Part shown: one piece after another, positions 799 to 64,000 of the stretch
How positions within the stretch are numbered: the stretch's first letter is position 1
Layout of the letters: every line of letters begins with the position of its first letter
Notes under the pieces: generated by a model
Databases searched by the model: none
What the model saw: the letters and a program-made list of their open reading frames with translations, nothing else
What the model was told of the DNA's origin: nothing
Source of the DNA: Bilabrum cf. latius
Lineage: Eukaryota
Reading direction: 5' to 3'
NCBI GenBank assembly: GCA_965178125.1
Contig: OZ237753.1
Location: 186,001-250,000 of the forward strand
Length of the DNA: 64,000 bases
Made by a program: the position numbers and the translations under genes

Positions 799-3185
799 TC
801 ATGTTCCCAGTCTGATCCCCGCCTCCGTCACATGCCCAAACAGCAACTTGCCCAGTCCCAATCTGCACAGCACACACTTCCACCTCTCCGTCGGATCCAG
901 CCTCCCCAGCAGCGACCCCATGGCAGGTATGGCACCTGCCTACCTCAGGACTACCACTAGCTCACTCTGGCCCGGAAACTCGTCCTGCTGCAGCCCGCGC
1001 GCCAAACCCAGCAGCAAGGCATCCGACTCCATCAGCACAGAAGTAACCTTCCCACCAGTTCGGAACAAGTGCTTCAGCGAGTAAAGAACCGCAAAGGCTG
1101 CGACCCCGTCGTTTCCAAGCAGAATTCGAGCCGTCTCATCTGCAAAGCCCTCCGCCGAAACCATAAGCTGCTTTACCTCTTCCGTGCCTTCCGCCATTGC
1201 GCGCAATGCGCGTCCCACAAACCCGAGGGTTTCGGGTGTCCCGACACCGAATGCCCTGGCCAGCCCCCTGACCAGCCCCTCCGTTGAGACCACGGATTTG
1301 GTGGCAGCCGCGAATGCCGCGTTGCTTATCAACATCACGCACACAGTCTTTGCGGCCGCAAATAGCGACTCCCCGTCCTTTTCCTAAAGCACCCGTGACA
1401 GACCGTCAAGTATTCCGGCTTCCAACAGCGCCGTCACCTCGTCCTCATCAGCATATATACACAGGTTGGCGGTGCTCCTTGCTGCAGACTCCAGCGCCTC
1501 GCCATCTTCCTCCCGAAGGACTCTCGCCAGGCCCTCCACCAAGCCTTTTGCAGATAAGAGGACCCTGCGTACCCCTGCGTCACAAGCAGTCATGGCGAAC
1601 ACCGCCCCGCAACCCCCCTCAAGCTCAGATCCACTGCCATCTTGGAGCACACGCGCGAGACCCCTAGGGATATCCGATGCAGCCAATACTGTCCCGTGTC
1701 CCGTGTCACTGTGGCAGATGTTCTATATCGTTCTGGTGACAAACTCTAGCGCCCGACCCTCCGAAATCATCACCCCTCTCTCCAGTCCCTTCAGTGCTTC
1801 CTTGTTCCTGACCATCCGTTCCCTGCCCTCGGGACTGCGCCCTGACATAGCATAGGCTGCAGCAGCTGCATCCTTAAACAGCTCGCCATCTGCCTCCCGC
1901 AACACGTGGGCCATACCATCGATCATCGCCGGGTCGCTCGCCGCCGCTCGGCAATCTCCACCATGCAGGCACATCTGGTACATTAGATCCAGTGAGACCT
2001 TTCTGGCCATTGGAGAGCCCACCCGCATGGCATGACCCACCCCGTGCATCAAGCCCTCGCAAGAGGCCACCTGCTGGCACCCAGCTCCGGACCTCATTCC
2101 CACGCGGCTCACCGCCGCGGCAGCAGCTGCTAACATGACGGCGTCTTCCTCTTCCTGAAGCACGTGCGCCAGCCCAGGCAGCAGCCCCTACGCCTCGTCG
2201 GCTCTGAGGTCCGCCATCTCGGTGATCGTCACAGCGCACACGCATGCAAGCTTCAGCTCGTCCCCTTTGCCTGACTTTAGCACTCGCCCTAGGCACTTGG
2301 TGACGGCGCTGTGCCGAATGGCCTCCGAATCCCCGGGCTTCCGCAAAGCTTTGCTGATGAAGTGTGGAGCCATGTCGTCCCCAACTGCATCTATCAGCAG
2401 CGTCATTCCATCGTTTCCGTGCTTTGCCTGTATGGCCTCATAAGCTACCTCGCTGAGGCACGTGAGAAGCAGCAGCACTGCAGCAGCCGCCTTCGTCGAC
2501 TTAGATGTGCTAGCTCTGGCAGGCACCTCCATCAGCACCTGCAGCAGCTTTGTTGACCTGAGAGTAGATGCCAATACATCCGCTGAGAGGTTCTCTGCGA
2601 TGTCTCCTACGGCCGCGATGGCTACTGAGGCTTCAAGTGCCGATGGATCCAGCTCGATCACGGAGCAGAGGGCGACCGCCCCACCTGCCACCACGAAGGG
2701 CTGGGCAAGCTCTGGCGACCCCATGGTGCGGCGCAAAAGCATGTGTATGGCAACTTGAAGGCGGTCGGCTTTTGATTCCCGAATCAGCCGCACCAGTTCG
2801 GAGGGCCCAGCGGACTCCAAGCGTGCATGCAATTCTCGTAGACTATCTCCTCCCGAGGCAGCCCCACTGCCACCCGATCCAGCGATTCCACGATCGACCG
2901 AAGCATCACCTGCGAAAGGAGCGAAACGATACAGCTACAAACATCCTTGGAGGGGGAAGCACAAGGAAATTCTTGGCTGGAACGGAGTGTGGTGTGGCAG
3001 GGTGGCAGGCTTTGTGCAACCCCAGCAAAATGATCAAGCGGATAGCGACAAGCCCTAGACCACACTAAGACCTGAAATCATGCTCAAAGGCATCAACTGG
3101 ATGCTCGAGACGGCTGGAAAGCGTCAACAGGTCAGATAGCAGACGCCTCACCAGATCCAGACCCCGCACCTGATGAGGAGCTCAT
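799..3185 (-). CDS. Armadillo/HEAT-like repeat protein (~714 aa, TAG=Gln, intron 2910-3151)
   Basis: ORFs 2188-2832, 1723-2163, 1384-1686 and 940-1344 share one frame and are separated only by TAG (2188, 1723, 1384, 940). Recurring helical units such as 'GLVEGLARVL', 'AGILDGLSRVL' and 'AGAIPAMGSLL'. Exon 1 MSSSSGAGSGS-G|GTGAGG joins the TTTCGCAG|GT acceptor in phase 1. Stop TGA at 799-801; the C-terminus is uncertain. Confidence 0.7.
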
Positions 3186-3531
3186 TGCGATTCCTTGTGT
3201 GAAGCTGTCACAACGATATGTAGTAGACTTTCCTGTTGATGAAGTACGCAAGCGTTTTCGTATTGCAGTACAAGTGTGCAAGAATGAGCTCCACCATGCA
3301 GCTACCGCGGGTGGTGGGCACAGTTGTAATCGCACGCAACTGGTTGCAGAACCTTCGGCTAAGGTTCGGCACCCCCAGCCGCAAGCGGCTCGGCCAGATT
3401 GCCTAGTCTACAGAAGGCCTCGTGCAGATCACGTGCTGAATTTGGATGAAGACTGGAATCAGACCCTCAGGCTGTCTCCTTAATGTCACGGTTTGTGCGT
3501 CAACACAGCGCACAGCATTGCATCTATTCAC

Positions 3532-4286
3532 TCAAAGCAGCTTGAGCATCTCCTCCGCAGAGCATTTCTCAAACCCGGGCCCCTCTTCGTGCAGAGCCTG
3601 CAGCACCTTGCCATCCTCCACCAGCAGGGCATACCTCTCGGACCTCACGTTGCCGAACACGGCGATGGCCTTGTCGAAGGCGACGTTCATGGCCTTGGTG
3701 AGGTCGGCGGCGGGGTCCGCGATCATCCGAACCTTGCCCTCGGCGCCGAGCGCCTTTCCCCACGCCTTCATCACGAAGGCGTCGTTCACGGAGATGCAGA
3801 AGATCTCGGTGACGCCCTTCGCCTTGAGGTCGTCAGCCTTGGCGATGTATCCGGGGATGTGCGTCTCCGAGCAAGTGGGGGAGAATGCCGCGGGGATACC
3901 CGTGACGATAACCTTTCCTTTACCGATCAGATCGCCGAACTTGATCTGCTCGCCGGGCTTGCCCTCCTGCACGTTGACGTCGGCTGGGATGATGCCCCCG
4001 ACAGTGATCTGCGAATCGTGCGGAATGTCATGCAAGGCAGGATGCTGATCCATGGGGTTCCCGTAGACGAAATCAAATACTATAGCACAAACTACATCGA
4101 CGGATAGAAGAGCGCAATAGCGGCGATGTGCTCCGACAATTAGGCAGATTCGCATCGCCACGTCGCCAAGGTTCTGCTAAGATCCACCCCATCCATGCGA
4201 ACATAATGGCCCAATCAATGCCACAAGGTCGGTAATTATCGCAATGTACTCACGCGCTCGCCTGCTTTGTCTCCGATCGCGGCCAT
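3532..4286 (-). CDS. PRDX5: Type II / Prx5-family peroxiredoxin (~169 aa, intron 4009-4253)
   Basis: Motifs IPAAFSPTCSETHIPGY, CISVNDAFVMKAW and RSERYALLVEDGKV. Exon 1 MAAIGDKAGER|GTGAGT splices in phase 0 to ATTCGCAG|ITVGGIIP. Stop TGA. No TAG codons. Confidence 0.9.
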
Positions 4287-5559
4287 TTTTTGTGTTATGC
4301 GTGGTTTATTATGCATGCATGCCGCATCATCAGGTCGTGGGGCATCAGAACGGTATGCTCCGATCGGACCCGGCGAAAAGTTGTGCCAAGGTGGGGTGAG
4401 TTTGCGTGTTACTGTTGCGTGGTCGCTAAATTGAACCGCGCCCCAGGCGAAGAAATTCCTGATATCTCTAGTCGCCTTTGGCTGCATTACGGGCCAAAGA
4501 GACCTCCCACGTCTGAAGTCGCTCCGACTCCGATGAGCCTGGTGTGCGGAGAAACGGTGCGGTGCCGCTGGGGAGGGCTACGCCAAGGTGCATCGAAAAG
4601 GGCTCCGTTGCCTGCCGCACTCGACCCCCTCCCTCCACTTGCCCTCGCTGACTGGCTGGTCCATGTGGAGTGACTGGGCCAGGCATTGGTGAGCCAATCT
4701 AATCGAGCACGTTGAGCACCCGGAAGTGCCTGCGGCCTGGAAGGCCTCCGCAGACTCGCTTGCCCTTGCACGTGGCACCGTGGCGAACTGACTAGGTCAG
4801 TTCGACTACCTTGCCCTGCTTCCGGCACCCCGGGCAGATCTGTGTGATGCGCCACGTCTCCCCAGTGGGAGTCCCCACATGCACCGTGCGTTGCCCCAAG
4901 AGGTTGTGGGGGACATCTGCACGGCTATGGGATGGCGAGACGCTGGCAGAACATGCCCTGGGCATCTTCAGGCTGGACTCGGCTCAGGACAGAGAGCGGC
5001 GCATGCAGCCAAGACCCGGCTCCTTTGGACCTGGCGGCGCAGATGGTTGCTCGCCAGGTGTTCTCAATTCCCGCCTAGCGCGAGCACTTGCGCGGCGATG
5101 CGCGCGTTTTCTGCACCGTGTACCAACGGGTTGCTAGATCTAGCAATCCCTTGGATCTGGTTGACGTCGTGCCCAAGCAGTCGGCCAGGGAGACCAGGAA
5201 GTATCGTGGGAACCTCATCAGGGAGGTTTACCGGGCCTTCAGAGCCTGGCCCAGGAGGTGAGGATGTCAATGCCAGGCTGGTTGCACTCGGGCGGCAGAA
5301 AGGGGATTAGGCAGGTCCTGCACAGGCGTGAGCCTCTGCGGTCCTTGCCCCCTGGCGTCAACTAGCTTTTTCGTGAAAGAGTTTGTCGTTTGTCGAGTCA
5401 ATCATATTGATTGACACATTCCTCCCGGTGCTCCCGCCCTTACTCAGCCCCACTATTCCTGCGCTTCCCGCCAGGTTCTTACATCTATCCGTTCACCCTC
5501 CACAATCCCCCTGGCCAGCTGCAACAAGCCGAACCCCGAGCTCCCATCGGCCATCGTAC

Positions 5560-6873
5560 TCAGAACCTTCCCCTGCCCTGCATGCGGTCATCGCCCTCCT
5601 CCGACGATTCCTGCCACTTGGACGCCAAGCAGACCGGAAGCAGCACCATCCCTGCGCGGCCCCCCGCCGCCCTGGCCCTCGCCGACCGCCCGCCTCCCAT
5701 CATGGAAGGCTGCTTCATGTAACTCTTCACCACCCTCCGAGTTAGGAACACGCCGGCGATCGACAGGGAGAACCAAGTCAGTGCGTACACGAAGTGCGTC
5801 TCGGGCATGACGTGGAACCTCACGTACTCGCTGAGCTGACGAGTGTAAGGAAAGTTCCTCGGGGTTCGCTCCCGGACGGCGTCGAAGAGGTATCCTGCGA
5901 GCTCCGGCGCGGTGCTCCCGTGCACGGCAAGCTCGTCGGCGTCGAAGCGGGTGAGCGCCAGCTGCCTTGCGGAACTTCCACCCTGCGCGGCGCCGCCTGC
6001 CAGGGATGATACGCCGTATGTGCTGCTCTGCGACATCGTATAGATTCTAGATTCAGAGGAGGGGGGCTGAGATCGATGACGGCACGGGGGAGGGTGCACG
6101 GAAAGTCATATGCGCGTGGCAGTGGCAGGCAAAAGATCGATGCAGCGGCGCATGCGGCTCACGGGTTCTCCCGTCCGAACGACGGCATCGACCTCCACGA
6201 GCCCATCGCTAGGTTCCGCATATTCGGCTCCAGATTGCGCGGCGCCAGCGTCGTCGCTCAGCCCCGCGCTCTCTCTCGCTTTCTTGGACTTGAATGGGCC
6301 AGGGATCCAACCCCGGTTAACTAGAACTCTTCTTCCATCTTCCAACACGAGTGGTGTGACGAGGTAATACCCGGGTGAGTCCCCCCGTTTGAGGAAGCCC
6401 TGTGGCAGGTCCTTCGGCGGCGGCCTCGGTCCCACGATTCCTTCCGCCGAGCGGTCCCACTTGCCTCGAAGTGATACACGCCTGCCATGAGCGTCTTGTT
6501 GGCCATTTTCCAGGTCCTCGTCTGTGGTTGTGAGCGCCGCAATGACCTCGTCGACTGTACTGATTTCCCTGTGCACCTGCCTCTTGCGCTCTTCGATTAG
6601 CTGCAGCTTCCAAAACAACCGCTTCGTCTACCAGCACCCAAGTCCAAATGTCAATGCTACCAGCGAGCCAAAGAAGGCGTACGCCGCCATGTCTTGGCCA
6701 CTCATGGATGCCTCCTTCCCGGCACCCGATGATTCGGCCGCGTGACTACGAGCAGAGCGTGACAGGCCTCGCAAGCCAATCACGCGGCTAATTTTAGCTG
6801 AAGTGGCGGTATGCGCAACGAGCCTGTTTCGAAAACCCACTTGGCAGGTTCGCTTCATGATTGATCGATGCAT
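5560..6873 (-). CDS. SURF1: SURF1/Shy1 cytochrome c oxidase assembly factor (intron 6067-6162, TAG=Gln at 6628-6630)
   Basis: Motifs TFGLGCW[TAG]TKRLFWK (family pattern FGLGxWQxxRxxWK), GYYLVTPL..VLVNRGWIP and HFVYALTWFSLS. Arg/Ser-rich mitochondrial-type N-terminus. Phase-0 intron GTGAGC...CTCAG removes an in-frame TGA. Stop TGA. Confidence 0.92.
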
Positions 6874-7191
6874 GCCTGGATCCTACTGAGCTTCACAGCG
6901 TGGCCCAAGACGGAAATTCAGGGAAATGCTCGACCAAAAACTGATACCTAGTCGATGCTTAAAGCGATTCTGAGCGATACGAATGCAACGGTACGTGTAA
7001 AATAGGCCAGCAGAATATTGCCAGTGGCTCCGGAATCGACCACGTCACGGAGCTCAGCTGATGCATGATTGTCGGCACACAGCGAGCCGCAGCACCCTCA
7101 ATATAATTCCGTTCTTCTGAATTGATAAAGTTCGACATAAAGCGGCCGACATCGCGCTGAAGACTTAGACAGAAGCTTGTCTGCTGTGGAC

Positions 7192-8322
7192 ATGATGAAA
7201 CGAGCCTCGCATGCTGTAGAGCAGCGGATACTAGCGGCAAGGGGAGTACTCCGCAAGCGAATGGGACTCCCGATGACTCCAGCATGGTGGCAGAAACCAG
7301 GTGGCAAAGAGCTTGCGGCGCAGCTGGTGGTCGCTACGAACATCGCTATCGTAGGCATCGGCTTGCCATTACTTGTTAACTACGGTATCGCGGAGAAACG
7401 AAAATAGCACGAGAAAACTAGACCAGTTCGTTCCGATGTTGTCCTCGATGCAGAGCGCGAACTGGCCGTCCTTGCTGTCATCAACGAGCGACGGCAGGCC
7501 CGCGGCGAGCCTCGTCTGATGGAGCTGCCTTCCCGCACGGCGGCCAAGCACGGCATCAAGGCCGACGGCTGGCGGTCCGTTTCGCCATAGGACATTGAAG
7601 GAGCAGGACCGGCCAAGCCTGTTCGAGTTCCCTCGGACGGCGGTAGCAGGGACAACTCGGGCCCCGGAGGACGCGACGAGGACGAGGACGAGGTTGATCA
7701 CACGTCGGCCGGCCGCAACTACGGGTACGGGCGAGAGAAGTAGAGCAGCCCGACGCCGGTGTGGACCGACAACACGAGCATGAGCACGAGCGTAGGGAGT
7801 GGCACTGGTGCTGCTGCCGGCACGGATGCGAGAACGGGCACTGGCACTGGCCACTACTAGTAGCAAGAGGCTAGTGATAGACAAGCAGCGCCCAGCTCAA
7901 GAAGCAGGAGCGGCAGCGGCAGGGCGGAGGAGGGAGGAAAAGCGTCAGGCGCGTCAGCCCCTGCGGCGTCCGCTGACGGTATGACGAGTGCGTCCGCAAG
8001 GGCGTTCCTGAGCGACGTGGACCGGGACGGGGATTCCAACGCGGCGCTGTGGGAGAAGATCGCCGTCCTCGCCGAGAAGTACGAGAAGTAGGACGAGGAG
8101 CTCGTGCACAGGGGCAGGCGGGCTGGCGACATCATCTATGACGAGCAGCCGACGGTGCTGGACACTGACGGCAATGTGATGGGGCCTGTGATGACGACTC
8201 CCACAGCGGATGAGCTGGAGAAGCAGGTGCTCGGCATGGGCAGGGCGCAGTTGCCAGGGCCCGAAGCGCCATAGGAGGGGTAGGAGCAGGAGGGGGGCCA
8301 GCAAGAAGTCGCCCGGCAGTGA
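7192..8322 (+). CDS. Hypothetical protein with one TM segment (376 aa, 8 in-frame TAG)
   Basis: Open from ATG 7192 to TGA 8320-8322 if TAG is sense (7405, 7588, 7741, 7858, 7861, 8089, 8272, 8281). Hydrophobic stretch LVVATNIAIVGIGLPLLV. Contains a TAG TAG CAA run and a Q/E-rich tail. Confidence 0.75.
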
Positions 8323-8561
8323 GGCTGGTCTGTGGTGGTGGGGATTGCTTGTGGTCCATGCAATGCACAGCTGCAACCATGGATGCGGCGCGTACTGGAG
8401 AGAGCACAATCTTAGCTTGATTGCTCCTGCTCCCGTCCGGACTGGAACCATGTCATGACATCCATCTCGGACTGATGACTGTTGCCAGAAATCGTACCGT
8501 GCGAAATAATTAAACCAGAATCGAATCAGAGCACAAGAAACTCACAAAATCCTAGATCAGG

Positions 8562-11500
8562 TCAGCTCCTGCCCCCGCCGCGAGACCTCGATGCTACCCT
8601 CCCCCTCCTGCTCGCACCAGCGCCTGCAGCAGCGCCCGCCCTGCTCCTGCCAGACGTCCCGCCCACCATCACCGACGATCGCCCGACACCTCTCGCTCCA
8701 CCACGGGCCTTGCTTGACCCACCACGGGCCCGCGCCCCGGCCCCGGCACCCGAGCCGCCGATCGTCTAGCGCATGGCCGACCTGCCTCGCCCGGCCGTGC
8801 GACCTGCCTTTGCCTTTGCCCTGCCGGTTGGCACTGCCCCACCCGCAGCGGCTGACGACGAGGACGAAGACGACGACGTCGCGCTGCCCGATGATCCCAC
8901 GCTGCCGCTCGCGCCCGGCCTGATGGCAGCGATCCTCTTCCTGGCCTGGCCCAGCTGCACCTGGGCCACCTGCTGCGCGAACCTCAGGGAACACAGCGAC
9001 TCGTGGGAGGAGGCCACGGTGGGGCTCAGGTTGACCATCATCATTGTCTTGCCGTCGCCCTCTAGGCACGGCTGCAGGAGGTACGTCAGCTTGCTGTTGC
9101 GGAAGGGGACGTGCTTGGATCGCTGCGCGAGGGACTGGAACACGTCTGCCATGCAGGACAGGCTCTTGTTGATGGCCTGCGTCTCCTTGAGCTGCTTGCC
9201 CTCCGCCTTGGAGCGAGCCAGCCTCTCGGACCCGGCAAGGTCGCAGAGGTTCAGGGTGCCCTTGAGCTCCACGCCGCGGTCCTGGTTGCGACCAGCGATG
9301 TACAGAGTGAAGACCGAGTGCGACCGGCTCGAGTGCTCGTTCATCGAGGTCGAGGCCACGCTCCTCCTCTTGTTGGCCTCGGCCATGATGTGCCCCGCGT
9401 CCGCTGCCTTCGACACGGGGACCTTGGTGAGCCCGGGCACGTCCACGCCGCCGTCCTTCCTCTGGTGGATGGACAGGCTGGCGGGAGTGGACTTGGCAGA
9501 GCCGCTGCCGAAGGCCCGGCCCCCTCCCGATGATGAGGAAGACGAGGGGCCGCTCGAAGCTGCAGAGCCGCCCGACCCCGTCAGGAGGTCTACGACCGTC
9601 TCGTTGTAGATCTCCAGGAAGCTTGCCCTGATCTGGTACTGCCATCCCTGCGCCCTCATCGCGTGCACCGTCTCGAGGATCTGCGCCACGGACCGTGGGA
9701 TCAGCCCGGCCTCCTCGCCGGTGCCACCCACCATGGTGTGCGTCTTTCCCGACCCTGTCTGTCCGTAGGAGAAGAGACACACGTTGTACCCATCCAGGGA
9801 GGACTGCACCAGCTGGCTCACCTCCTCGAACACGTCCTTCTGGCTCGTCCCCGGGGGGAACACCGTGTCGAAAGAGAACTTGTAGGACTTGTCCTCGCCC
9901 GCCGCCGCGGAGATCTTGGAGCTGGAACGAGATGGCACGCCGGAGAGAACAAGAGACTGACCATCCACGTCGCACTGGATGGCACCGCCGTCCGCCGACC
10001 CCCCGAACGACCCGAAGCCGCCTGCAACCGCCTCCTCTCCCATCTCCTCCTCGGCGCCCCCCTCGCTCTCCCAGCCGTCTTCGTCCCCGTCGTCCCGCAT
10101 CGCAGCGGCGCCAGACCCGGCCGAAGCGCCGTCGCCATCGCCGTCGTGCGACAGCATGGGCCGGATGCGGGCCACCACTCGGATGCTGCCCCTCAGGTCC
10201 TGCACCTTGTTGTGGAGAGCGCGCCTGGCCTCGTTGGCCGAGAAGAGGTGCTGCTTGAGTGCCTCGTTCTCCTCCTCCAGGGTCTGCATCTTGGTGGAGA
10301 GCTCCGCCTTGTTCCCCAGCTGCCTGCGGAGCACCTCCGTCTCCTTGGACATGGCGAAGATCTTCTCCAGCTGCTCCTCGTTGGTGGACCCCATGCTGCG
10401 CTTCACCTGGCCCATGGCCGCCTCCAGCTCGTCCGCCCTCTCTCGTTGTTCCCTGGCGTCCTTCTGAACCTATGTCAGCTCCCCCTCAAGCTTGCCCGCC
10501 TTCTCCGTGGCCTCCTTGGCTGTCACCTGCGCGGACTCCAGCTCGCCCTCCAGCCCCTCTGCCTTGCTGAGCGCCTCTGCCAGCCGGGCATCCAGGTCCT
10601 GCTTCACCTTCTCCGCCTCTTGCTCCGCCGCGGCCGCCGCCTCCTTGTTGGCCTTGAGCTCGCCCTCTAGTCTGGCGCCCTCGCTGCGTGCCTCCTCTAG
10701 CTTGCGGGCCCCTTCCTCCACGGCCTGCTGCGCGGCCTTGAGCTGCTCCTGCAGCCGCGCGTGCTCGCCGCTCAGCTCCCTCAGCTCTGACTCGAGCCTC
10801 GCCTTTTCGCTGCTCAGGTGTTCCCTCTCCCTGGAGGCTTCCTGCAGCTGGGACTGCAGCCCATCGGCGCGGGCCGTGGCCTGCCTGTCCCGGTCTCCCT
10901 GGTCCTTCTGCTGGGTGAGCAGCTGCGTGATGGTGCTCGACAGCTGCGACTCCTTGGCGTGGAGCGACTCTTTGCATTCCTTCAGGTCCATCACGGCCGA
11001 GTCCCTAGCCGCCCGTGCCGTGGCCAGCTCGGCGTCCATCTTGGTCCGGGCCATCTCCAGCTCCCTGCCCCTCTCCTCCGCGCGCTGGAGCTGTTCCCTG
11101 ACTCCGACCAGGTCGCGCTTCACGTCATCGGCCTCCTTGGCGGCTTGTTCCCTGGCACTGACCGCCTCTGCGACCTCCTTGCTTGCTTGTTCCCTGGCCG
11201 CGTCCGCCGACGCCCTCTGCTTCTCGACCTCGGCTGCCACCTGCTCCTGCGCTTCAGCCCTGACTGCGTCAGCCTTGGCCTGGAGCTCCGTCACGAGCGA
11301 GTCTGCGTCTGCGAGCCGCTGCTTCGCGGCCGCCAGCTCCACCTCCAGCTCCTCCACCCTGGCCGCGTTGGCGTCGTTGGAGGCGGTGGCGGACTCGGCC
11401 GCCTCCAGGGCCTCCTCGGCGTCCTTCTTGGCCTGGTTCGACTCGGCTTCCGCCCGTCGGACCGTGGCCCGCGCGGCGTCTCTCTCGTCCTTTGCGTCCA

Positions 11501-12521
11501 AAAGCTCCCCGCGAACCTTCTCTAGCTCATCCTCGATCAGCTGCTTTCGCCTCATCGCGTCGTCCGCGTCTGCCTTGAGCTGCCTGCACATCTGCTGTGC
11601 CCTAAGAAACGTGTCCCTGATCGCGCTGTCGTGGATCTTCGCGTGTTCCCTGACGGCGTTGATCCGCTCCATCGTGTTTCCGATGACGCCGGCCAGGCAC
11701 TCTCGCTTGACCTTCTCGTTGGTCGTCTGGTGCCTTCCCACCAACTTGCACACGGCGCGATTCACACTGATCGGGTTGATGAAGTGCTCGAGCTCTGAAT
11801 CGCCGTACTTGCGGTTGAAAACTGAGGCAAGAGCGTCTTCCACCATGTCGGTGGCCAGCGGCATCTGGGGAATGCCGTGGTGGCCGCCTTCTGCCTCATC
11901 CTCCTCCATCTCGTCCTCATCCTCGTCGTCGCAGTCCTCGTCAGCTACCTAACCGGGCAGTGCGGGCGGAGCCACGGCCCCACGAGCGCGGCGACCGCGC
12001 CTAGATGCAGCTGCAGAAGATGATGATGCAGCGGCAGCTTTGCTTCGTGTGGCGCGGCCGGTACGCTTGGCCGGTGGCTACGCTGCAGTGGCTCGTCCGG
12101 GTCTAGCCGTCTTCCTGCCGCCGCGTGTCTTCGGAGAGCGGAGCGACGCGATTTCGTGACGACGTGACTTCATTGTCTGAGACAGTCCCGATCCATTTGA
12201 AGCGCTAGATGCCGCCGCATGTCGCCTGGTCGCTCCTCCCGTAGCTTTCGACGCAGATCGAGCCGAGCCGGCTGTCTTCTTCGCCGAGGAAGCCGAGCGC
12301 AGCTGGCGACGCTTCAAGGTTGCTCGTTCAGCTGCTTTCATTGATCTTTCAACTGAATCAGTGCTGCCCTCCTTGCGATGGCGCTTCATGTCAACGTTGG
12401 AATCGGCCTCTGCCAACGAGCGCTTCTCGCCCAGCTTCGGTTCACTTGCACTCGACTCATCGTCAATAGCAACGGGCTATCGTTTTGGAATAGGAATACC
12501 AGTACTTCCTGGTAGAGCCAT
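8562..12521 (-). CDS. Kinesin-14 (Kar3/KIFC1-like, C-terminal motor), ~1319 aa
   Basis: Neck LHNKVQDLRGSIRV, P-loop YGQTGSGKT, switch motifs NEHSSRSH and DLAGSE, HVPFRNSKLT. Long coiled-coil stalk and basic N-terminal tail. One frame from ATG 12521 to TGA 8562 with TAGs at 12477, 12078, 11949, 10470 and 8766. Confidence 0.93.
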
Positions 12522-12685
12522 GCTAAGATGGGGTGGACCAGTATGCTACCACCGGAGTTTTCCGTGGTTTCCGACCAACGGACGGATGCATTGAAACCAG
12601 ATTCAGCTAGTTCAAAGTACACATTACAGATAAAACGTGACGAGTGGAAATACTCAATTCAACATTTGTCCTCTGTGCGCCTTTA
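12522..12685. promoter_or_regulatory. Putative bidirectional promoter (kinesin-14 / CPSF1), 164 bp
   Basis: Short, AT-richer gap between two divergent ATGs. Function is inferred. Confidence 0.5.
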
Positions 12686-19727: not shown

Positions 19728-19929
19728 ATCGTTCTGGTGTGCACAGGCATATTTTGTTTGGGTTGACTGCAAACGTGGCACCGCGCCGAATTTGCTTGGG
19801 TCATGGGCCAATTGGGCCATGGTGATCCGATGGTGATCCTCAATTCGCACGTCTCTTTGCAAATTCAGACTGATGTGCCACAGCGTTTCGTCACCAGATT
19901 CTGGGGTAGCTCAGCCACAATCTACTTGC

Positions 19930-53177: not shown

Positions 53178-53337
53178 GACTGTGTCTCTATCCCCAGATA
53201 ATAACCGAAGGACAATAGGTGGCAGAGGGATCGGATCGAACTCTAGCAACACCTTACCGAAACTGGTATAAGTTCGTTCGGAGCTGAAAACATCGATGTT
53301 GCGGCAACAGAAACTCGCAGTATTTTGAAGCATTGCG
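53178..53337. promoter_or_regulatory. Putative bidirectional promoter (RPS17 / threonine aldolase), 160 bp
   Basis: Short, AT-richer gap between divergent start codons. Function is inferred. Confidence 0.5.
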
Positions 53338-54501
53338 ATGCGTACTTTGCGTCTCAGACCCCGTTTGCTAGGAGGTATGCACCATTATCTACCTTTGAAG
53401 GCATTATATTAGCCAATGACCAGATTTTTCAGCGGAAGATCAGCGGATTTCCGTTCAGATACGGTGACAGTTCCCGATGCAAAGATGACCCTTGCCATGA
53501 TGGATGCTCGGTGCGGAGATGATGTTTACGGTGAAGATCCTACTGTGAATTAGCTGGAGGAACTGGCCGCCGACATGTGTGGTAAAGAGGCTGCCCTGTT
53601 CGTGCCCTCCGGAACCATGGGAAATCTTGTTAGCATGGCGGCGCATGTACAGCACCGTGGGGGAGAAGTAATCCTCGGAGATGAGAGCCATATTTTCCGA
53701 TATGAGTAGGGGGGAGCGAGTGCGTTGCTTGGTTTGCCGTTTTTCACGCTGCCGACGGCAAAGGACGGAACGTTGAGCCCTCAGGCAATACAGGATGCGA
53801 TTCGAGAGGACGATTCGCATTTGCCACGGACGGCTCTCGTCTGCTTGGAAAACACGCACAATCGCTGCGGCGGCGCGCCGATCCCAGCTTCGTACATGGA
53901 GGAAGTCGCGGACGTGTGCGGCAAGGCGAACCTGCCGGGCGGCGCGCCGCTGCCCCTGCACGTGGACGGCGCTCGCATCTTCAACGCCGCCGCGGCCCTC
54001 GATACCGATGTCGCGACCCTGCTGGAGCGGGCCGATTCCGCCTCCGTTTGCCTCTCTAAGGGGCTAGGGGCACCTGTTGGTTCGGTCGTCGTGGGCAGCA
54101 AGGATTTCATAGCGAGGGCGAGGCGAGCCCGCAAGATGGTGGGAGGGGGGATGAGGCAGGCGGGCGTGATCGCAGGGTGCGGGATCGTCGCGCTGCGCGA
54201 CAACTCGAAGGCGCTGGGTGATGACCACAGGAGAGCCAAATCGCTTGCTCGCGGACTAGCCGCCATCGACGGCATCAAGGTGGACGTGAAGGCGGTCAGG
54301 TCAAACATTGTGTTCTTTGATATCGAAGAAGGACATCCCGTGCACGCCGATGCACTGGTGCAGGCACTAGAGGAGAAAGGTGTCAGGATAGGCGCGTACG
54401 GCGGCATGAAGTGCAGGGCAGTAACGCACGGCCAGGTGAAGGATGAGCATCTAGAGCGGTTCCTGGAGGCAGCCGAGGAGGTGATGAGCGGGGGCAAGTG
54501 A
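53338..54501 (+). CDS. Low-specificity L-threonine aldolase (Gly1/LtaE family), 387 aa, probable mitochondrial presequence
   Basis: Motifs [20 protein letters not shown][TAG][18 protein letters not shown][TAG][18 protein letters not shown] and [12 protein letters not shown] (PLP lysine). TAGs at 53410, 53551 and 53707. Stop TGA. Confidence 0.95.
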
Positions 54502-54687: not shown

Positions 54688-54857
54688 GAAGCAGAAGCAT
54701 TGAGTATGACAATATTCCAATGTCTTGATACACTCTCAAGCTATTGATTATTTAGACACGGCCGTCCGCATGATGCCTTGATACTCTGCGCAAGAGAGCA
54801 ACCCTGCAGGCTTTGAACCCCCAACCGACCTCAAGCACGCGTTACTGGAGCGCTCAG

Positions 54858-57800
54858 TCACTCCCCCCCTGTCTCCAGGCCACCGTCCACGAACAAGTCC
54901 TCCTCTTCTTCCTCCTCGTCTTCCTCCTCCACGATCCCTCCAAGGCCAGTCACCCTGCCATCCCCAACCTGAAGAGGCCCCCCAACATCCTCGTCCTGCT
55001 GACCATGGCCATGACCATGGCCATGGCCCAGCTCTTGCTCATCTTCCCGCTCCTCTCTCGCTCCCGAGGCCCGACCCCCGCTGCCGTCGTCAGCCGCGTC
55101 ACCAGCACCCTCCCTAATCTTACCCACCCTCTTGCGCGCCGCCACCGCCATCCTCACCGTCGCAAGCAGCCGTTTCAATGAAGTCGTGTTCATTGTCAAC
55201 GTGCCGATGCTGCGGTTGCTCTCGCCGCTCACTGAGCCCGCCATGGACTGCAGCTGGGACGCGCGACCCATGACGGACCCGGCGTCGGAAAACGGCTGCC
55301 CACTCGTCACATCGCTCCCAACGGTGTCGGCCCTCAGCAGCTGCCCAAGTCCCGGCGGCAGTGACCCAGCTCCCGTGGGACCGAAGGGAGGGCTGAGACC
55401 AGTCGGTGCGTGCCCCTGTTGGCGTCCACGCCCACCATCCTGGTACTGGGCATGCATTGCACCAGAATCACCGTTTCCTGCACCCGGATGCGCCGATCGA
55501 GTTGAAGGCAAGGGGCCTGCTGGTCCCGCAATCCCAGCGACGCCCGCGTGCCGACCCACCGTGTGCGATTTTGGCTGCTAGCCAAGCATAACCGGGGACC
55601 GCTCGTGCGGAAGCTATGCCGCGCCGCTTGGATACGCCGCGCCGCCAGACTGAGGTTGCAACCCCTGGCCAAACCCGTCCCCGAACCCTGTGTGGCGGTG
55701 CTGCTGCTGGTGCGAGTAGCCCATGCCGCGATGGCTGCCGCTGCTGGTGGTAGTGCCAAATCCACCAGTGGATCCATGAGGTCCTTCAGACGTAGTCTTG
55801 CGCCCGCTGTCATGGCTCTCTGCCTCCTTCTCTGCCTGCAGCTGCTGATGTGCCCGAGTGAGCATCTGAATGGCGACTTCGAGGTGTCCGCCGCAGCGCA
55901 CGAGCAGCCGCCTGCCCGCCGCCAGCGCGGCGTCTTCCTCCAGCCGAGTCATGCCGGCGCCGGGGCCAGCCGTGTCCTCTGGCGTCAGCTTCACCCTGCC
56001 AGGCAGGCCAACGGAGCTGCCAGACCGCCCGCCAGACCCGCTGTTGCCCGAGCTGCTACCTTCCATGTTTGAAACCACAACCCCACTGGCACTGGCTTGT
56101 TCCCTGGGTGGTGATACGGTGGAAGAGTGGCCCCCGCCGCTGCCAGAGCCGCTGGTGGTGCTAGCCGTGCTGCCTTCGGGGCCGCCGGTCGCGCCGCTCC
56201 TATTGCTACCGCTTCTTCCAACGCTCGAGGAAGGAACGCTTGGCCCACGACCGTGCGATGCATCTGCATTGCCTTCCTCTCGCTCCATGTGGCTGGGTAC
56301 AGACGGGAGGTCGTCGTCAACAGGATCAAAGTCGTCGTGCTGCTGGCTGTTGCGCCGCCGCTTCCCCCGCCCTGGCAGGTCGCCGACTCCGCTGAGAGCC
56401 ACATCGCCGTCCACCGTGTTGGCCTCCGTAAAGCCGCTGCCTGAGCTGCTGTGTCTTCGCACCCTGCCGCGAGTGTGCTGCTGCCAGCCCGGATGCTCCG
56501 CGCCGGCATCCGGCTGCCCCCTGGCATAGGCTTGGGCGTGGGCCGTTTGGGCGTACTACGCATACACTGCAGGGTGCATGATACCGCTGGGACCCATGGC
56601 CCCAGGCATCATGGAGGGCACATGCATCATCATTGACGGCATGGACGACGTGGGAGTGGGTGGTCCTTGCATCCACTGCGCCTGCGCTGCTTGCACTGCC
56701 TGCACCTGCTACAGCCGACTAAATGTCTGCAAACGCTGCTACAACCCCTGGATGCTGAACGAGAAACCGGGCCGAAGCTTTCTCGTGGTGCTTCCATTGG
56801 TCGGCTGCTACTACTGCTGGTGGTGGTGGTGCCGGTGCTGGCGTATCGGCGGTCTGGCTTTCGCATGACCTTTGGTGTCTTGCTCGAAGCCTACACGACC
56901 TGTCCCAATTGATCTCGCGCTTTTTTCCGATGTAGCCCGGCCGCCGGCGCCGGCGCGCGCCTGGGGAGTCTGCGTCACGACGGTGAGGCCGGGCCTCCTG
57001 GGAGCTTGCCTGAGCCCCGTACGCCTGGCTTCCTCCAGCTTGCGCTGGGCCTCGTCGTCCGTCTCGTTGCCGTCACCCGACCCTCCGCTGGTGCTGTCGC
57101 CGTCTCTTCCCTAGGGCAAGCTGTCTGCTCCAGCTCCGTGCACATCATCGTCCACGCCCCTGCTGCCGCCATCGCCGTCAGCTTGCGAGGGCGTCTCCGC
57201 GAACGTGGAGCCGGCCAGCTGCAAGTAGGAAGGCGTGGGACGGAACGTGCCAACAGTTTGCTCGAGCATGGCAAGATGCTTCTCGAGCTCGCGCGAGTTG
57301 CGGTCCAGCCACTTCTGAAGTGCCTTCGTCTCGCGCTGCGCCTGCTTTCTCCAGCGATACATGGCCCCTGCCACCACCATCTTCCGCTTCAGGACGAAGA
57401 GCTTGTCGATGAGGCGGGTCTTCCTGGACCGCTGCTCCGACCTCCATTCCAGGAAACCAGTGGCGAGGATCGCTGCTGGCAGGCTATAGAAGGACGTACC
57501 AAGCACGACCAGAAGCGCCGTCACGAAGCGACCCTAGGTCGTGATTGGCGCCAGATCGCCGTAACCCACGCTGGTGATGCTGATTACCGAGTGGTACAGA
57601 GCCGTACCAAGGTCTGGAAAATCCTCCGGGTTCTGCTGGTGCTCCGCCGCGTGGATCGCAAAGGCGAAAATCAGTATGAAGGAGGACGAGATGAGCAGCG
57701 AGGTGAGAAGCTCCTCGCTCTTGATGGAAAACACGGCGAACAGCGCGGCCAGGCTCGGCGTGTACCGGACGAACTTGAACAGGCGCACGGCCCTCCCCAT

Positions 57801-59168
57801 TCTGACCCAGTTGGACACCTGGGAATTGCTCTCGAACGCATCGATGACCCCTGCCATGTGCAGCACGGCAGGAGCGAGGAGAATCAGGTCGAAGATCATG
57901 CTGGGCCACCCAAGCACCAGCACGCGCGGAAGACACACGTAAAAAGTGGTGTGCAGGCAGCAGCCCTTGCAGCTCCCGTCGTCTTCTACGAGGGCACGGG
58001 CCCGAAGCATCTCCCTCTTCTCGGCCTCCCTCTGCCGCAGCCGCTCCTGCCACGTGCTGCCTTGAGGCGATGCGCCTGATTCTATTTCCTGCTGCCGGCG
58101 GATGTTTGCAGCCAGTGCGAGCTTCCTAAGTTCAGGGTCGGTGTCCACGGACTGGGATCCGCCAGCCTCGCCATTTCCGTCAGTGTCGGAACCTCCATCC
58201 ATTGAATCCATCGAGCTGTGAGCGGCACTCGAGATTCGCTTGTTACGGAACGGCACCTGGCTGCCTACTGAGTTCCTTGACGTGCGCGGCTGGGCAGCGC
58301 TGCCACTGGCACTGGTTCTGCCTGCTGTGGTACTGCCTGCAGATCCTCGTGACAGTAGCCCGGCCTGGGACTGAGAGGTAACAATCTCGGCACCCCTGGC
58401 TTGGTCTTCCGACTTGCTGCCTCCAAACGTGACTTGCTGTGAAGGAGGTCCTGCTGCTTTGCTATCTGGTCCCCCCCTACCGGCACCGGCGGTGGTACCG
58501 GCCGTGAACGGACTCTGAGCTACTCTGGTGCCAGGGCTATCGGTCGAACTGTCCGCGTCTTGCAACCGCACAGGATCCTCTCCGGGCAGCTTGTCGTTAC
58601 AAACACTGGCATGTCGCACGCAAATACAGGGCTTGCAAGTCGCCATAACGATAGCCGCAGGATAGTACGGCTCCAGGTCGGCTGTCCACATGCGCAGCAA
58701 GAACTCGATCAGCATCGTCGAGCAGAATATGAACTCGACAGTCCGAACCCCAGGCTATTGAATGCTGACCAGTGATGGAGCCTCTTCAAACTCCACCGTT
58801 TCCGTGATCAATGACATGAGTGATATGTAAAGCAGCGCCAACACACAGAGCCGAGCGATTCTAGCAGCAAGTGAAAACGCCTTGCCACGCCACACGAGCG
58901 CAAACACCTCCTCGCGTACCTCCTCCAGCCATCTCCTTGACTTGTCATCAAGATTTAGCGTGGAAGCAACAATTGAGCGGCGCCGTGTTTTGGGTACCCT
59001 CCCGGCCAGCTGAAACGAACCTCGCCGATTCAACGTTTGTCGGTTACCCCCGCGCTTTATTCTAACCGAAGGGACAATAGCAGAAGCTTGTGTTCCATCC
59101 CCAGCCTCTGTGCTAGTGTTTTTTGCGTTGGCTGCAAGCCCTTGCTTGATTTGGGAGAGCGAGGCCAT
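54858..59168 (-). CDS. Voltage-gated (6TM) potassium channel with long low-complexity loops, ~1436 aa
   Basis: S2 EFIFCSTMLIEFLLRMW, S4 WVRMGRAVRLFKFVRY, pore SITSVGYGDLAPITT[TAG]GR, S6 FYSLPAAILATGF. One frame from ATG 59168 to TGA 54858 with ~10 TAGs. Confidence 0.9.
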
Positions 59169-59457
59169 GCTCTGAGTGGGTCGACAATCCAATATCCCTA
59201 CCAGGCGCAGTTTGAAAGCTTCAGGGCGTCGTGTACGTCTCCAGCACTTCAACTACTTAGTGCTTGAATTATGATATCCTAGGGTCGCAATTTGTCAAGA
59301 TATGCGCTCGTACTGTACTGTCGTCATCTGCGATCGTTTTGGAGCAATTCTGGTCGCAAAGGCAGCATCCGTTTGGCGCTTTCTGAACGATTCACCCTTG
59401 GCACACTACACTAGATTGCAAGTAGTGGGTCCTCGTCAATTTTAAGTGTTCCTTATA

Positions 59458-62400
59458 ATGTCTAGTTCGAGACCGAATAGGTCGCGGCTCGACCCAGGGG
59501 GGGTGTCGCATCGGATTTCGGATGGCCGTGGAGTATCCGCCAGTTTGTTCGGCTCAAACGCCGACTCGCTCATGTAGGGTCGAACAAACCAGTCTTTCAC
59601 ATCGAATAGACCGCCTGGACGGTAGCCGCTAGCTCAGAGCTCCGGCAGACCGTCCTACGGTGGACGATAGCTGTAGCGACGCGAAAGCCCTCAAGCAACG
59701 GCGGGAGCAGCCGAACCTCACGATCGAACGCGTGGCAGCTCGGTGCAGAGATCAAACAGTGGTCATAGAAGCCTGGTGGGAAGCGTGGCCTCGCGGCGAG
59801 CAGCTGCCTCTCGAGGAAGCAGCCGGCCACGGACCGTGGGTTAGTTCAGGCAAGGCGGCCTGCCGCGCTCCCAGGCTTGGGCAGAACCAGCCTCTGACGA
59901 CATGATGAGGCCTTAGCTACTCGTGCCAAACGAACTCTAGCGCGTGCTTGCGGGCGGTTTCCCTAGTGCTGGATCGCGCCTCATGCGGGGTGGGACGGCC
60001 GGGCTGCAAGTCGAGCGAGCGGCCGGCGGGCGGCAGGCGAGCACTGGACTATCAAGCGCTGGGCGGCCCTTCACTTCAGTGTTCGGAAGCAGACCTGGCG
60101 TTGATCTGCGCAGGTAGAGACAGTCATAGCGCCAGGGCGCCAGCCGTGGCGGGGCAGGCCGGCAGCCACTCCCGGCTGGAGCCCGAGACACTGCCCCCTC
60201 CTCCTCTGCCTCTGCCTCTGCCTCTGCAAGCGGGGGTTTCCGAGCAAGCGCTGCCGCAGACTTGCAAACACAAACCCAGGTGCAGGACACCAAGGAAGAA
60301 GGCGGCACGGATTTCTCTGCTAAGAGGCGCCCAAGGGGGGCGCACCAGCACCAGCAGCCCGTCACGCTGCCATCGATTGGACCAGGTCCACTAGGTCTCG
60401 GACCCGCGCTCACGAAAGAGCAGTGGGCAGAAGCGACCGCGAAGGTGAAGATGGACGCGCCAATCCCGATGCCAGGCACAGAGGCGTTTCGCCGCGAAAT
60501 GGCACTCCTGAGCCAGCTTGCACTGCACGGTGGCGCAAGACTGCTCCTGCAGGAGGGCTTCGTGGGCTCCTTTGCGCCGGATACCAGCACGAGGGGGAGG
60601 TCGATGGAGGCACATCTCGCGCTGGCTGGTAGCTCGCGGGCGGCGAAAGCATCGCAGGCCGCATTCGGGCGAAGCGCACGACCTACCAGCGCTCGCTCCA
60701 CCCAGTCTTCACACAGTTCCCCGGGTAAATCGGATGCTAGGACAGGCGACGGCTCCCCGCGGATACTTGCACCCACGGGCTAGCGGCCTCTCAGGGGGGG
60801 CGGCGGGTCTGAGGGGAAGCGAGACGACGTCTCGGAGGTGCAGCCCACTGCAAGGGAATCCAATGGCTCTGGCACTTCCGGATTGCCCGCCGTGGCGGGT
60901 GCATCGCATGGCAGTGCTCGCAGCCACGCGTCGGGCGGAAGGTCGCCTTCCGGCGGTTCTGGACAACGCGGCACCTCTTCCCCTGCACGTGGCCGGAGCA
61001 GGGAACGAGATGGCGACAAGGGCAAGAATAGCCAGCAGGGCCACAGGTCTTCAAGTGGCAGCGTAAGTCGGCCGGGGAGGGGCGGCCCTCCGTCCAGGAG
61101 CACATCGTCTACGTCTGCGGCAAGGGGTGGAGCGAGGACGACGAGCAGCAGCTACGTCAGCGCGTGGAAGCAGAGGGAGGAAGAGAAGAAGAGAAAGAGG
61201 CGGGAGAAGCGCATGAAGAAGCGGCAGGCAGCGAGGGAGAAAGAGCGGGCCAGAGAGGCCGCTGAGAGGAAGATGATGCTCGAGGAGGAGTGGGCGGTCA
61301 TGAGGGCGCAGTGGTGGGGCACCGGGCCGAGGACGGGCAGGTGGAGGACCGTGCGCTGCTTCCTGTCGTCGAGCTTCAGGGACATGCACGGCGAGCGCGA
61401 TTCGCTGACGAGGACCGTGTTCCCTGCGCTGAACCAGCTGGCCAAATCGCGCCGCGTGAAGATCGTCGGGATCGATCTGCGGTGGGGTCTCACGGCGGAA
61501 GACTCATCCGACTCTGGTCTTGGGGCGCTGGAGCATTGCTTGCTGGAGGTGGATCACTCCCGTCCGTTCTGCTTGGTGCTCAGCGGCGAGAGGTATGGGT
61601 GGCGGCCCCCTAACTACCGCGTCTCGGACCGGCCCGAGTTCGACTGGGTCCGCAGCTTCCCTGCCGGGCATTCAATCACGGCGATGGAGATTTTCCACGC
61701 GTTCCTGCGGAAATCGCACCAGCCCACGCACGCAATCTGCATGCAGCGAGACCCAAAGTTCATGGAATCGATCGATCCCAAAGACAGGTGGGTCTTCGAG
61801 TTCGACGGAGACGACGAGGCGCTGATCCTCAGAGACAATCTCCGAGAGGACATGAAGAGTCACCCTTTCTGCACCTTTCATGACTACACATGCGAGTACG
61901 GCGGTATTGACGAGGAGAACAAGCCCGTGGTGACGGGACTGGAGGATTTTGAGCGTGTTGTGCTGGAGGACATGTGGCAGAGGATCAAGTCGGAGTTCCC
62001 GCCGCCACCGCCGCCCCCTTCCCAGCTCGACCTCGAGCGCTCCTTCCACCAGTTTTTTATCCAGGAACGGTCGCGAACCTTCATTGGCAGGGAGGCACTT
62101 TTGGATCGGCTGGAACGACACGCGAACGGGGACGCGTCTGGCGAGTCGCTGCCCCTTGTGGTGTCCGGGGTGCCAGGCAGCGGCAAGACGAGCCTAGTGT
62201 GTCACTTCGCCAAGCGGTACCAGACGGAGCACCCGACGTGCTTCACACTGATGCACGTCGTGAGTGCATCGCCTACTAGCACCGACATCCGCGAGACGCT
62301 GGTCAGGCTCTGCAAGGAACTAGCCCTGCATTTCCAGGAGCTCAACTTTGACGCGGAGGACGAGGAGGCGGAATACGCTGACGTTCGAGAACGTTTCACC

Positions 62401-64000
62401 GTCCTACTCGCGGAGGCCGGCCAGCAAGCCATCAGGCAGAACTCGCACGTGCTACTGGTAATGGACGCAATCAACCAGCTGAACCCATTCCACAACAGCT
62501 ACACAGGGGACTGGTTGCCGGCCTATTCACCTGCTGGCGTGCGCACGATCGTCAGCACAACCCCTGAGGCAGCCATCCTGCAGCACCTGATGCGCCGAGA
62601 TCCGCCCCCTCCACAGGTGGAGGTGCCTGCTCTGTCGGTGGAAGAACGCAAAGAAATCGTGGTCAAGTACCTCGCGGTGTTCCGAAAGAGGCTGCTGGCC
62701 CAGCAGCTAGACCTAATCATGAAGAAGCGCGACAGTCACAAGCCGCTATACCTGATGACGGTGTCGGAGGAGCTCCGGCTCCAGGCGCAGTACGGGGCCG
62801 ATGGGTCCGGTGTAGATGACACTATCCGGCAGTTTCCCGGAAACATCCCCGAGCTTATGAGCGTGGTGCTGGAGCGGGTGGAGCGTGATCTCTCCCAGTG
62901 GGCGAGGAGCCTGGATCCAGGCATGCTGGAAGGGTTCGATGCCAGTGCGCGGTCCACGGATGAAGACGTCAAAGCGGAGGCAGAGGCGGAGGTAGAGGGC
63001 AGGAAAGAGGACGATGAGGAGGATGACGAAGACAGCAGCAAGGATAGTGAGGATGAGGGTAAGGAGGCACCAGCTGCTGATGCTAGCGGCGAAGGGCCGG
63101 CCTCTGGCGCCGGCGCAGATGCAGCCACGGACAAGTCGGCATCCCTGGCAACCGTCGCCGCCCGAGTGGGCAAGCACATCGTCAGCGAGGCCCTCTGTTT
63201 GCTCGAGTGCAGCAGGCACGGCCTCCGCGAGTACGAGCTTCTCGAGCTGCTTGCTCCCAAGGGGAGGGAGAGGCTGCCGCCCGTGGTGTGGGCTAGGCTG
63301 TACCGCTCCCTTGAGATCTACCTGCGTCCTGTTGGCGAGGAGGACCAGGGCGGCACCATTGGGTTCTTCCATCTGCAGCTGCCTTTTGCCATTCGAAGGC
63401 GATACTTAGAAGGGGCTACTAGCAAGGAGGCCGCCGTGTGCACGAGGCTGGCTGACTACTTCCAGCGCAAGGCAGATCCCACCGATGACGGCCGCTGGCT
63501 GGGCAACTCCAAGAGGTATGTCAGCGATCTCGTCTTCTACCAGCTGACTTCCCACGATCTTGGCAGGCTCAAGAGCACGCTGGGAGACATTCTGTTCATC
63601 GAGAGAACCGCACAGATGGGTGCCGGTATGATGGAGCGGCTTCTTCGGGACTATAACGAGGTGCAAGAGGTCATTCGAACGCTGCCATACGCGGTGCTCA
63701 AGAGGGCGCTCAGGAACCTCCCGGCGAAGGAGGGCAGCCGGGCGGCCCAGCTCCAGTGGATTGGTGAATAGGGCGTCTTCGTCGCGGCCAACCACTCCAT
63801 CTTCACCGCTGAGCCCCAGCTTACGTTTCAGTCGGCTATCAACTCGCCAACCGCAAGCTATCCTCACAAGGCAGCCGAGGGCCTGCTGAGCGACTAGACT
63901 AGGGCCATTCAGGCGGCTATGGATGTGCGCGAGCGAGACATTGAGAGTACCGCCGCCAAGCTGCTTGAGCCAGCTACCCTGGACCGCCTCGCGATCCTTG
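59458..64000 (+). CDS. TEP1/NWD-like protein with DUF4062-type domain and NACHT NTPase (partial, runs off the window)
   Basis: Motifs VRCFLSSSFRDMHGERD..GIDLRWG, LSGERYGW, SITAMEI, FIGREALL, P-loop GVPGSGKT, Walker B LLVMDAINQL, and KPLYL. The frame is open from ATG 59458 to the window end with 12 TAGs and no TAA/TGA. Confidence 0.85.

Follow-up and report, generated by a model that had tools for sequence, protein, structure and literature searches.

UAG as a probable glutamine codon in the nuclear genes of a GC-rich, stramenopile-like organism

How is UAG read in a nuclear genome whose genes carry this triplet again and again in frame and end elsewhere? The question is raised by a stretch of 64,000 nucleotides from contig OZ237753.1 (positions 186,001 to 250,000 of the forward strand; assembly GCA_965178125.1, recorded as Bilabrum cf. 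latius), called here the window, whose own numbering is used throughout. Its genes are expressed and conserved nuclear genes in which TAG is a sense codon, while UAA and UGA are still terminators. With high confidence, the locus is understood as nuclear DNA in which UAG specifies glutamine and translation ends at UGA (mostly) and UAA, from a genome rich in GC and poor in introns that apparently belongs to a stramenopile related to Cafeteria. This code matches NCBI table 15 and that of Iotanema spirale.

When TAG is read through, the window (60% G+C) displays 13 long open reading frames (ORFs) on both strands that cover most of its length, in other words 13 genes in 64 kb. When TAG is taken as a stop, the same 13 ORFs are fragmented, and the longest of them, with 2283 and 7465 codons, are intact only with read-through. 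Pfam families leave the nature of these genes in little doubt: SURF1 (E 3e-26), the kinesin motor (E 9e-101) accompanied by a Microtub_bd domain of the kinesin-14 type, CPSF_A with the RSE1 propeller in the CPSF1 ORF, and a beta-eliminating lyase (E 4e-99) corresponding to threonine aldolase. These four identities, proposed in a first-pass annotation made from the letters of the window, are thus confirmed; other families among the ORFs are redoxin, FG-GAP, EGF, REJ, ion channel, NACHT and PhyH. The window is eukaryotic nuclear DNA, and since it encodes SURF1, a cytochrome-oxidase assembly factor, the organism would possess an aerobic mitochondrion.

The distribution of the three stop triplets is the first line of evidence. 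Counted from stop to stop, the ORFs contain 108 TAG, 102 of which lie past the first ATG, and at least one is found in 12 of the 13 ORFs (the PhyH-like ORF being the exception). Over 18,641 in-frame codons, with the other two frames for comparison, TAG occurs 102 times (145 and 119 times out of frame), TAA never (52 and 43 times out of frame) and TGA never (394 and 358 times out of frame). Of the 12 complete ORFs, 11 terminate at TGA and one at TAA, none at TAG; the role of TAA as an active stop is therefore read from one gene end together with its absence in frame. Tolerance of TAG alone, with TAA and TGA fully excluded, does not fit chance, decay or sequencing error. The first-pass annotation had described ten genes on both strands, interrupted only by about 100 TAG and never ending in this triplet. 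The spread over both strands, the approximate number and the exclusivity of TAG stand, and the number of genes was an undercount. The absence of terminal TAG holds for all 12 ORF ends and is less secure for four ORFs (the ARM-like ORF, the ORF at 7141–8322, kinesin and the EGF ORF) in which the last TAG precedes the TGA by 10–67 codons.

The second line of evidence comes from four public runs (X1, X5, X6 and X7, belonging to three studies), compared with positions 799–20798. X1 behaves as DNA, with even coverage at a depth of 13–16, long contigs spanning genes and retention of the single intron of SURF1; it is one of four DNA runs (X1–X4) that contain the whole window. The X5 contigs, on the other hand, match gene limits (799–2905, 7091–8390, 8611–12548 and 12915–19766), with depths that differ ~500-fold among bins. 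In X5, X6 and X7, that is in three runs from two studies, positions 6027 and 6163 are joined after removal of a 135-nucleotide GT..AG segment on the minus strand, and this splice completes the SURF1 gene, with exon 2 reaching a TGA at 5560. Spliced SURF1 and gene-bounded contigs indicate that X5–X7 behave as transcript assemblies, their RNA nature being deduced from these two features. The X5 contigs show no letter that differs from the window (for the contig at 12915–19766, outside a skipped repeat at 13370–13455) and include 27 in-frame TAG codons; the same letters are found in contigs of all four runs. The search for edited or spliced codons at TAG sites, suggested in the first-pass annotation, thus returned 27 unchanged TAG, a result that speaks against RNA editing, introns within the frame and errors of assembly.

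Reading TAG as sense inside genes leaves room for an ambiguous code, in which UAG would be glutamine within genes and a context-dependent terminator elsewhere. Context-dependent stop codons are known in Condylostoma and karyorelict ciliates. This is the alternative that survives best, and it is nonetheless improbable. In its favour are the four ORFs just mentioned, whose short tails between the last TAG and the TGA have weak or indecisive coding-potential scores, as well as the X5 contig of kinesin, which stops at 8611, 47 nucleotides short of the TGA (8562–8564) and 155 nucleotides past the last TAG (8766–8768). Contig ends are not equivalent to RNA ends, and this one may stem from low-complexity sequence in which assembly broke off, or may hint at termination at TAG. 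Against an ambiguous code, all 12 complete ORFs reach TGA or TAA, 45 TAG are read through in one gene, and the conserved C-termini of threonine aldolase, CPSF1, redoxin and SURF1 run past earlier TAG and end at TGA. Moreover, kinesin-14 homologues also have tails behind the motor, with 42–67 residues in five relatives (48 in Cafeteria), the tail encoded in the window being longer (~115–130 residues). A code of the Condylostoma type devoid of dedicated stops (table 28) was rejected, given that neither TGA nor TAA occurs in frame.

If UAG is sense, which amino acid does it specify? The main test relied on 1200 residues of the giant gene of the window (43944–47543, with 20 TAG), compared exhaustively with 1.84 billion representative proteins, which yielded 194 matches; all residue counts given for this gene rest on the best 150 of the 194. 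An earlier homologue search, with shorter lengths and sparse words, had returned one match only. TAG was masked as X, and at each position the most similar match of at least 40% identity was retained, so that 1168 of the 1200 positions and 19 of the 20 TAG sites were covered. At these 19 sites the nearest relative has Gln in 10 cases, Glu and Arg in two each, Ala, Thr, Gly, Asp and Ile in one each, and Leu in none. In the same alignments, Gln is found at 37 of 56 sites encoded by CAG or CAA, at 6 of 49 Glu sites, at 5 of 79 Arg sites and at 1 of 114 Leu sites. The Gln share at TAG is thus near that at CAG and CAA, and TAG is quantitatively like a glutamine codon. When all matches of at least 40% identity are considered, Gln accounts for 24 of 57 residues and Leu for 3 of 57 (manual count), and in fragments of 80–87% identity for 5 of 6, the sixth being Glu.

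These frequencies can be converted into likelihoods. The summed BLOSUM62 log-likelihood ratio of Gln over Glu amounts to 8.3 for the 19 sites and to 11.4 when 24 sites are taken, and that of Gln over Leu to 30–35, in agreement with an empirical model derived from the same alignments; were TAG a glutamate codon, the chance of finding at least 10 Gln at 19 sites would be 2e-5. Other genes point in the same direction. In threonine aldolase, the column of TAG-127 has Gln in 94 of 120 homologues (Leu in 2) and that of TAG-75 is polar (Arg 75, Gln 17, Lys 15 and Leu 1), while TAG-369 of CPSF1 faces a Gln in human CPSF1. Weaker support is provided by TAG inside poly-Gln runs, such as CAG CAG TAG TAG CAG, and by the Gln richness of codon neighbours (0.079 for TAG, 0.066 for CAG and CAA, and 0.049 for Leu codons).

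Several observations weigh against this assignment. Residues other than Gln occupy 9 of the 19 TAG sites in the nearest relatives, and the residues facing TAG vary among homologues below 40% identity, Leu being the commonest at sites 4861 (9 Leu) and 4913 (18 Leu). A more specific difficulty stems from the tandem array of the giant gene, made of eight ~1370-nucleotide units of two alternating types between 31175 and 42000 (the double unit measuring 2742 nucleotides). At codons 838, 1294, 1752, 2208, 2666, 3122, 3585 and 4031, immediately ahead of the FG in one FG-GAP repeat, the codon is TTG in four units and TAG in the other four, even between units that are otherwise nearly identical; such a change would be silent were TAG a leucine codon. 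Rather uninformative are TAG-2127 and TAG-2223 of CPSF1, which face Ala and Met in the human protein, TAG-587 of the channel, opposite an Asn in KCNQ2, and TAG-711 of kinesin, located in a variable coiled-coil column (A/E/S). Finally, X5–X7 are not on record as RNA, contigs are compatible with a minority of edited molecules, ARAGORN detected no tRNA gene within the window, and the eRF1 gene is not among the genes of the window.

The evidence in favour of Leu, from the repeat units and the distant homologues, is outweighed by that in favour of Gln, and the TTG/TAG alternation reflects recent Leu/Gln changes among repeat copies. It is very improbable that UAG is sense for another residue, whether Glu, the runner-up in both likelihood tests with 2 of the 19 nearest-relative sites, or Leu, as in the rhizarian exLh and some mitochondria. 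Both are opposed by the likelihood ratios and by TAG within CAG runs, and Leu in addition by its absence from the 19 sites and its near absence from the TAG-127 column of threonine aldolase, and the leucine reading raised by the TTG/TAG alternation was rejected. Pyrrolysine, for which we know of no eukaryotic precedent, was rejected as well, since Gln in the relatives fits. Judged from the aligned proteins, Gln is strongly favoured at UAG over all other residues, and UAG very probably encodes Gln in this organism, as the first-pass annotation had proposed.

Since UAA and UAG usually change together (PMC5304391 and PMC11687900), a table 6 code, with both triplets read as Gln and UAA merely rare because of the high G+C, has to be considered. 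The rarity of TAA throughout the window would be in line with it. However, if TAA were used in proportion to the CAA:CAG ratio, ~31 would be expected in frame, as opposed to the zero observed in 18,641 codons (P = 3e-14). Such an absence, together with the gene that ends in TAA, designates a UAG-only code and bears out the table-15-like assignment of the first-pass annotation, so that table 6 becomes extremely unlikely. Equally hard to credit is the absence of any code change, with TAG due to assembly or sequencing errors, pseudogene decay, RNA editing or short in-frame introns, which has nothing for it beyond the formal possibility, given that one stop triplet out of three appears alone in frame without frameshifts seen, that its 27 copies in gene-bounded or spliced contigs and the letters common to four runs are unaltered, that the single real intron, with its GT..AG ends, is spliced out, and that relatives show the same pattern.

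To which organism does such a code belong? Among the matches listed for the kinesin-14 motor region, the named ones with full coverage are all from stramenopiles, with Cafeteria roenbergensis as the best (54% identity), followed by the EukProt transcript GECG01 (53%), presumably from Halocafeteria, and by oomycetes, diatoms and Triparma (45–48%). One record, P0294 (KIN14H of Symbiodinium sp. KB8), is identical to P0292 of Cafeteria roenbergensis over the aligned motor region and is probably a Cafeteria contaminant in the Symbiodinium assembly. A tree was built from the window sequence with 22 named and 22 unnamed rows picked from the 120 matches listed, giving 44 rows once Brassica was dropped as too short. 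In this tree the window is sister to a Cafeteria trio (support 92/72), within a set of 15 rows (95/90) apart from oomycetes and ochrophytes, and its branch is long (0.76). Because the placement relies on one gene, it is provisional: the organism would be a stramenopile near Cafeteria, of a bicosoecid-like lineage. Together with the 60% G+C, this is in keeping with the 'GC-rich stramenopile-like' character that the first-pass annotation had considered for it.

Relatives are known as protein fragments, 69–385 residues long in the protein collections, and whether they share the code is read from the ends of these fragments and not from TAG in their DNA. The ends of fragments derived from standard-code ORFs lie opposite a CAG, CAA or TAG of the window in 10 of 24 cases, against a background of 6.5% (P = 1e-6); among fragments with an identity of 80% or more, 4 of 4 do so. 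Likewise, a threonine aldolase relative of 74% identity (P0013) begins 9 residues past TAG-127 of the window. From these ends it appears that the wider clade probably has the same code, and the pattern suggests that organisms down to ~45–60% identity in the fast-evolving giant protein share it. A metagenome scan with a threonine-aldolase alignment retrieved bacterial-type loci only, at 44–58% identity (80 kept of 593), and missed P0013.

The codon table itself has precedents. In the nuclear code of Iotanema spirale (Fornicata), as described in the available text of Panek et al. 2017 (PMC5304391), UAG is Gln and UAA and UGA are stops. The two systems thus have the same table, with UAG alone reassigned and UAA kept as a stop, and in both a tRNA-Gln(CUA) derived from tRNA-Gln(CUG) and an altered eRF1 are postulated (for the window organism by analogy). 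They differ in that Iotanema is an anaerobic metamonad, documented in that text by a transcriptome only, whereas the organism studied here, represented by 64 kb of genome, encodes SURF1, is expected to be aerobic and has a kinesin-14 that groups with stramenopiles. Besides Iotanema, the accessible text of PMC11687900 lists Protocruzia tuzeti and two phyllopharyngean ciliate lineages as cases in which UAG alone became Gln, and a rhizarian (Leu), Scotinosphaera (Ser) and one ciliate (Glu) for other residues. Protocruzia tuzeti and the phyllopharyngeans, which are independent origins of the same table, resemble the window in that UAG, and not UAA, was given to Gln; unlike the window, with its 60% G+C and 13 genes in 64 kb, they are alveolates with another genome architecture. 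The rhizarian exLh (UAG = Leu; PMC5304391) offers another UAG-only reassignment in a protist of the stramenopile–alveolate–rhizarian group, with Leu rejected in the present case at a log-likelihood ratio of ~30.

Table 6, with UAA and UAG both read as Gln, is used by most ciliates, hexamitin diplomonads, oxymonads, ulvophytes and an aphelid. What these systems would have in common with the present one is the conversion of a stop into Gln by a suppressor-like tRNA-Gln, predicted here by analogy; what separates them is UAA, which is not sense in the window. By kinesin-14, no named relative is nearer than Cafeteria roenbergensis (54% identity in the motor region and sister in the tree). It differs from the window in that its kinesin-14 is predicted with the standard code as an unbroken protein of 1117 residues, and it presumably lacks the UAG reassignment.

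By analogy with the cases studied, three components would support the new meaning of UAG: a tRNA-Gln(CUA), differing from tRNA-Gln(CUG) by a single anticodon change, that would read UAG but not UAA; an eRF1 that would be weakened for UAG and keep its recognition of UAA and UGA; and a glutaminyl-tRNA synthetase that would accept the CUA anticodon. As to the route, codon capture is plausible given that UGA closes 11 of the 12 genes, UAG having perhaps been lost as a terminator before being captured for Gln. The GC-rich, UGA-terminating background would fit such a capture, and not the AT-rich setting that is usual for reassignments of UAA and UAG. For Iotanema, the available text of PMC5304391 reports a T32G replacement in the GTS motif of eRF1.

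While the code is already known, its lineage and its GC-rich genomic setting appear new. A full-text search of a literature collection, confined to main texts, brought up no stramenopile with an altered nuclear code, and the origin of UAG = Gln seen here may be independent and undescribed. The balance tips slightly towards a broader proposal, namely that stramenopiles show here their first nuclear code change, that it extends to a clade of Cafeteria-related heterotrophic flagellates with UAG = Gln and UAA and UGA as stops, whose members of 44–87% identity lie unrecognized in public read sets and metagenomes, and that its origin, in a GC-rich genome that terminates with UGA, is separate from those in Iotanema and the ciliates.

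The importance of such a case lies in the coupling of UAA and UAG. UAG-only reassignments break it, and few nuclear examples are named in the accessible text of PMC11687900. A further independent one, if true, would be a natural experiment on an eRF1 that loses UAG yet keeps UAA, and would bear on the question whether reassignment is favoured by GC pressure and by termination mostly at UGA. The organism, with its compact GC-rich genome, occurs in several sequencing projects, which suggests that it can be grown in the laboratory. On the practical side, because gene callers set to the standard code shred such genes, the proteome of this organism and of its clade would be mis-annotated in public resources, where the relatives appear as fragments only.

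The remaining features of the window are described below by strand and position, beginning with the giant ORF (29637–52034, plus strand). Its 7465 codons include 45 TAG and end in TGA. Each unit of its tandem array encodes FG-GAP repeats followed by a Ser/Thr/Pro linker, and units of the same type are 98–100% identical; Tandem Repeats Finder reported nothing for this array (period >500). Past the repeats, REJ, EGF-like domains and a C-terminal multi-pass membrane region give the protein a polycystin-1-like layout.

On the minus strand, an ARM-repeat-like ORF of 744 amino acids (799–3033) holds 5 in-frame TAG, 4 of them past the first ATG, and ends in TGA. A redoxin similar to peroxiredoxin-5 (3532–4305) has a single TAG located 5′ of its first ATG, probably in the 5′ leader, and a TGA end; X5 depth is very high at 3467–4133. 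SURF1 (5560–7044) is made of two exons, 7044–6163 and 6027–5560, both matched by Pfam SURF1 and separated by an intron at 6028–6162 across which frame and stop were checked. Its coding part contains one TAG, at codon 139 (...GCW-TAG-TKR...), in what we take to be a conserved 'W-Q' motif that was not counted as evidence, and comparison of the protein with solved structures gave no match at E up to 1. The kinesin-14 gene (8562–12602) encodes a coiled coil and a C-terminal motor, with 6 TAG (5 past the first ATG) and a TGA end. Further along the same strand are the PhyH-like dioxygenase ORF (26666–28411), which is free of TAG and is the only gene of the window ending in TAA, and a KCNQ-like voltage-gated K+ channel with long low-complexity tails (54858–59294), which has 11 TAG, including those of the poly-Gln run quoted above, and ends in TGA.

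Between the redoxin gene and the 3′ end of SURF1 lies a multi-copy element (4703–5220), over which the depth of X1 climbs from ~15 to 170–560. Diverged copies carry ~14 substitutions and deletions of 13 and 6 nucleotides, and such copies are abundant also in X5–X7. It contains no tRNA, no Rfam match and no ORF with a Pfam family; Rfam gave no match in the whole window at gathering scores, nor in 4300–5570 at E up to 1.

On the plus strand, an ORF of 393 amino acids lacking a Pfam family (7141–8322) holds 8 in-frame TAG, including a TAG-TAG pair that adjoins a CAA, and ends in TGA. It is followed by the CPSF1 (CPSF160) homologue of 2283 amino acids (12876–19727), with 9 TAG and a TGA end, and by two ORFs for membrane proteins: one with FG-GAP repeats (19837–21819; 2 TAG past the signal peptide and a TGA end), the other with EGF domains (21698–26242; 4 TAG, 3 of them past the first ATG, and a TGA end). 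These two overlap in different frames at 21698–21819 and may be adjacent genes or a single gene with an unrecognized intron. An ORF of the DUF4062-NACHT type (STAND NTPase; 59446–63999) has 12 TAG and continues beyond the end of the window. The low-specificity threonine aldolase (53329–54501) contains 3 TAG and ends in TGA; its best full-length matches are bacterial (Desulfonema and Desulfobacterales, 54–55% identity) and it also has an N-terminal extension, which makes bacterial ancestry or organellar targeting possible.

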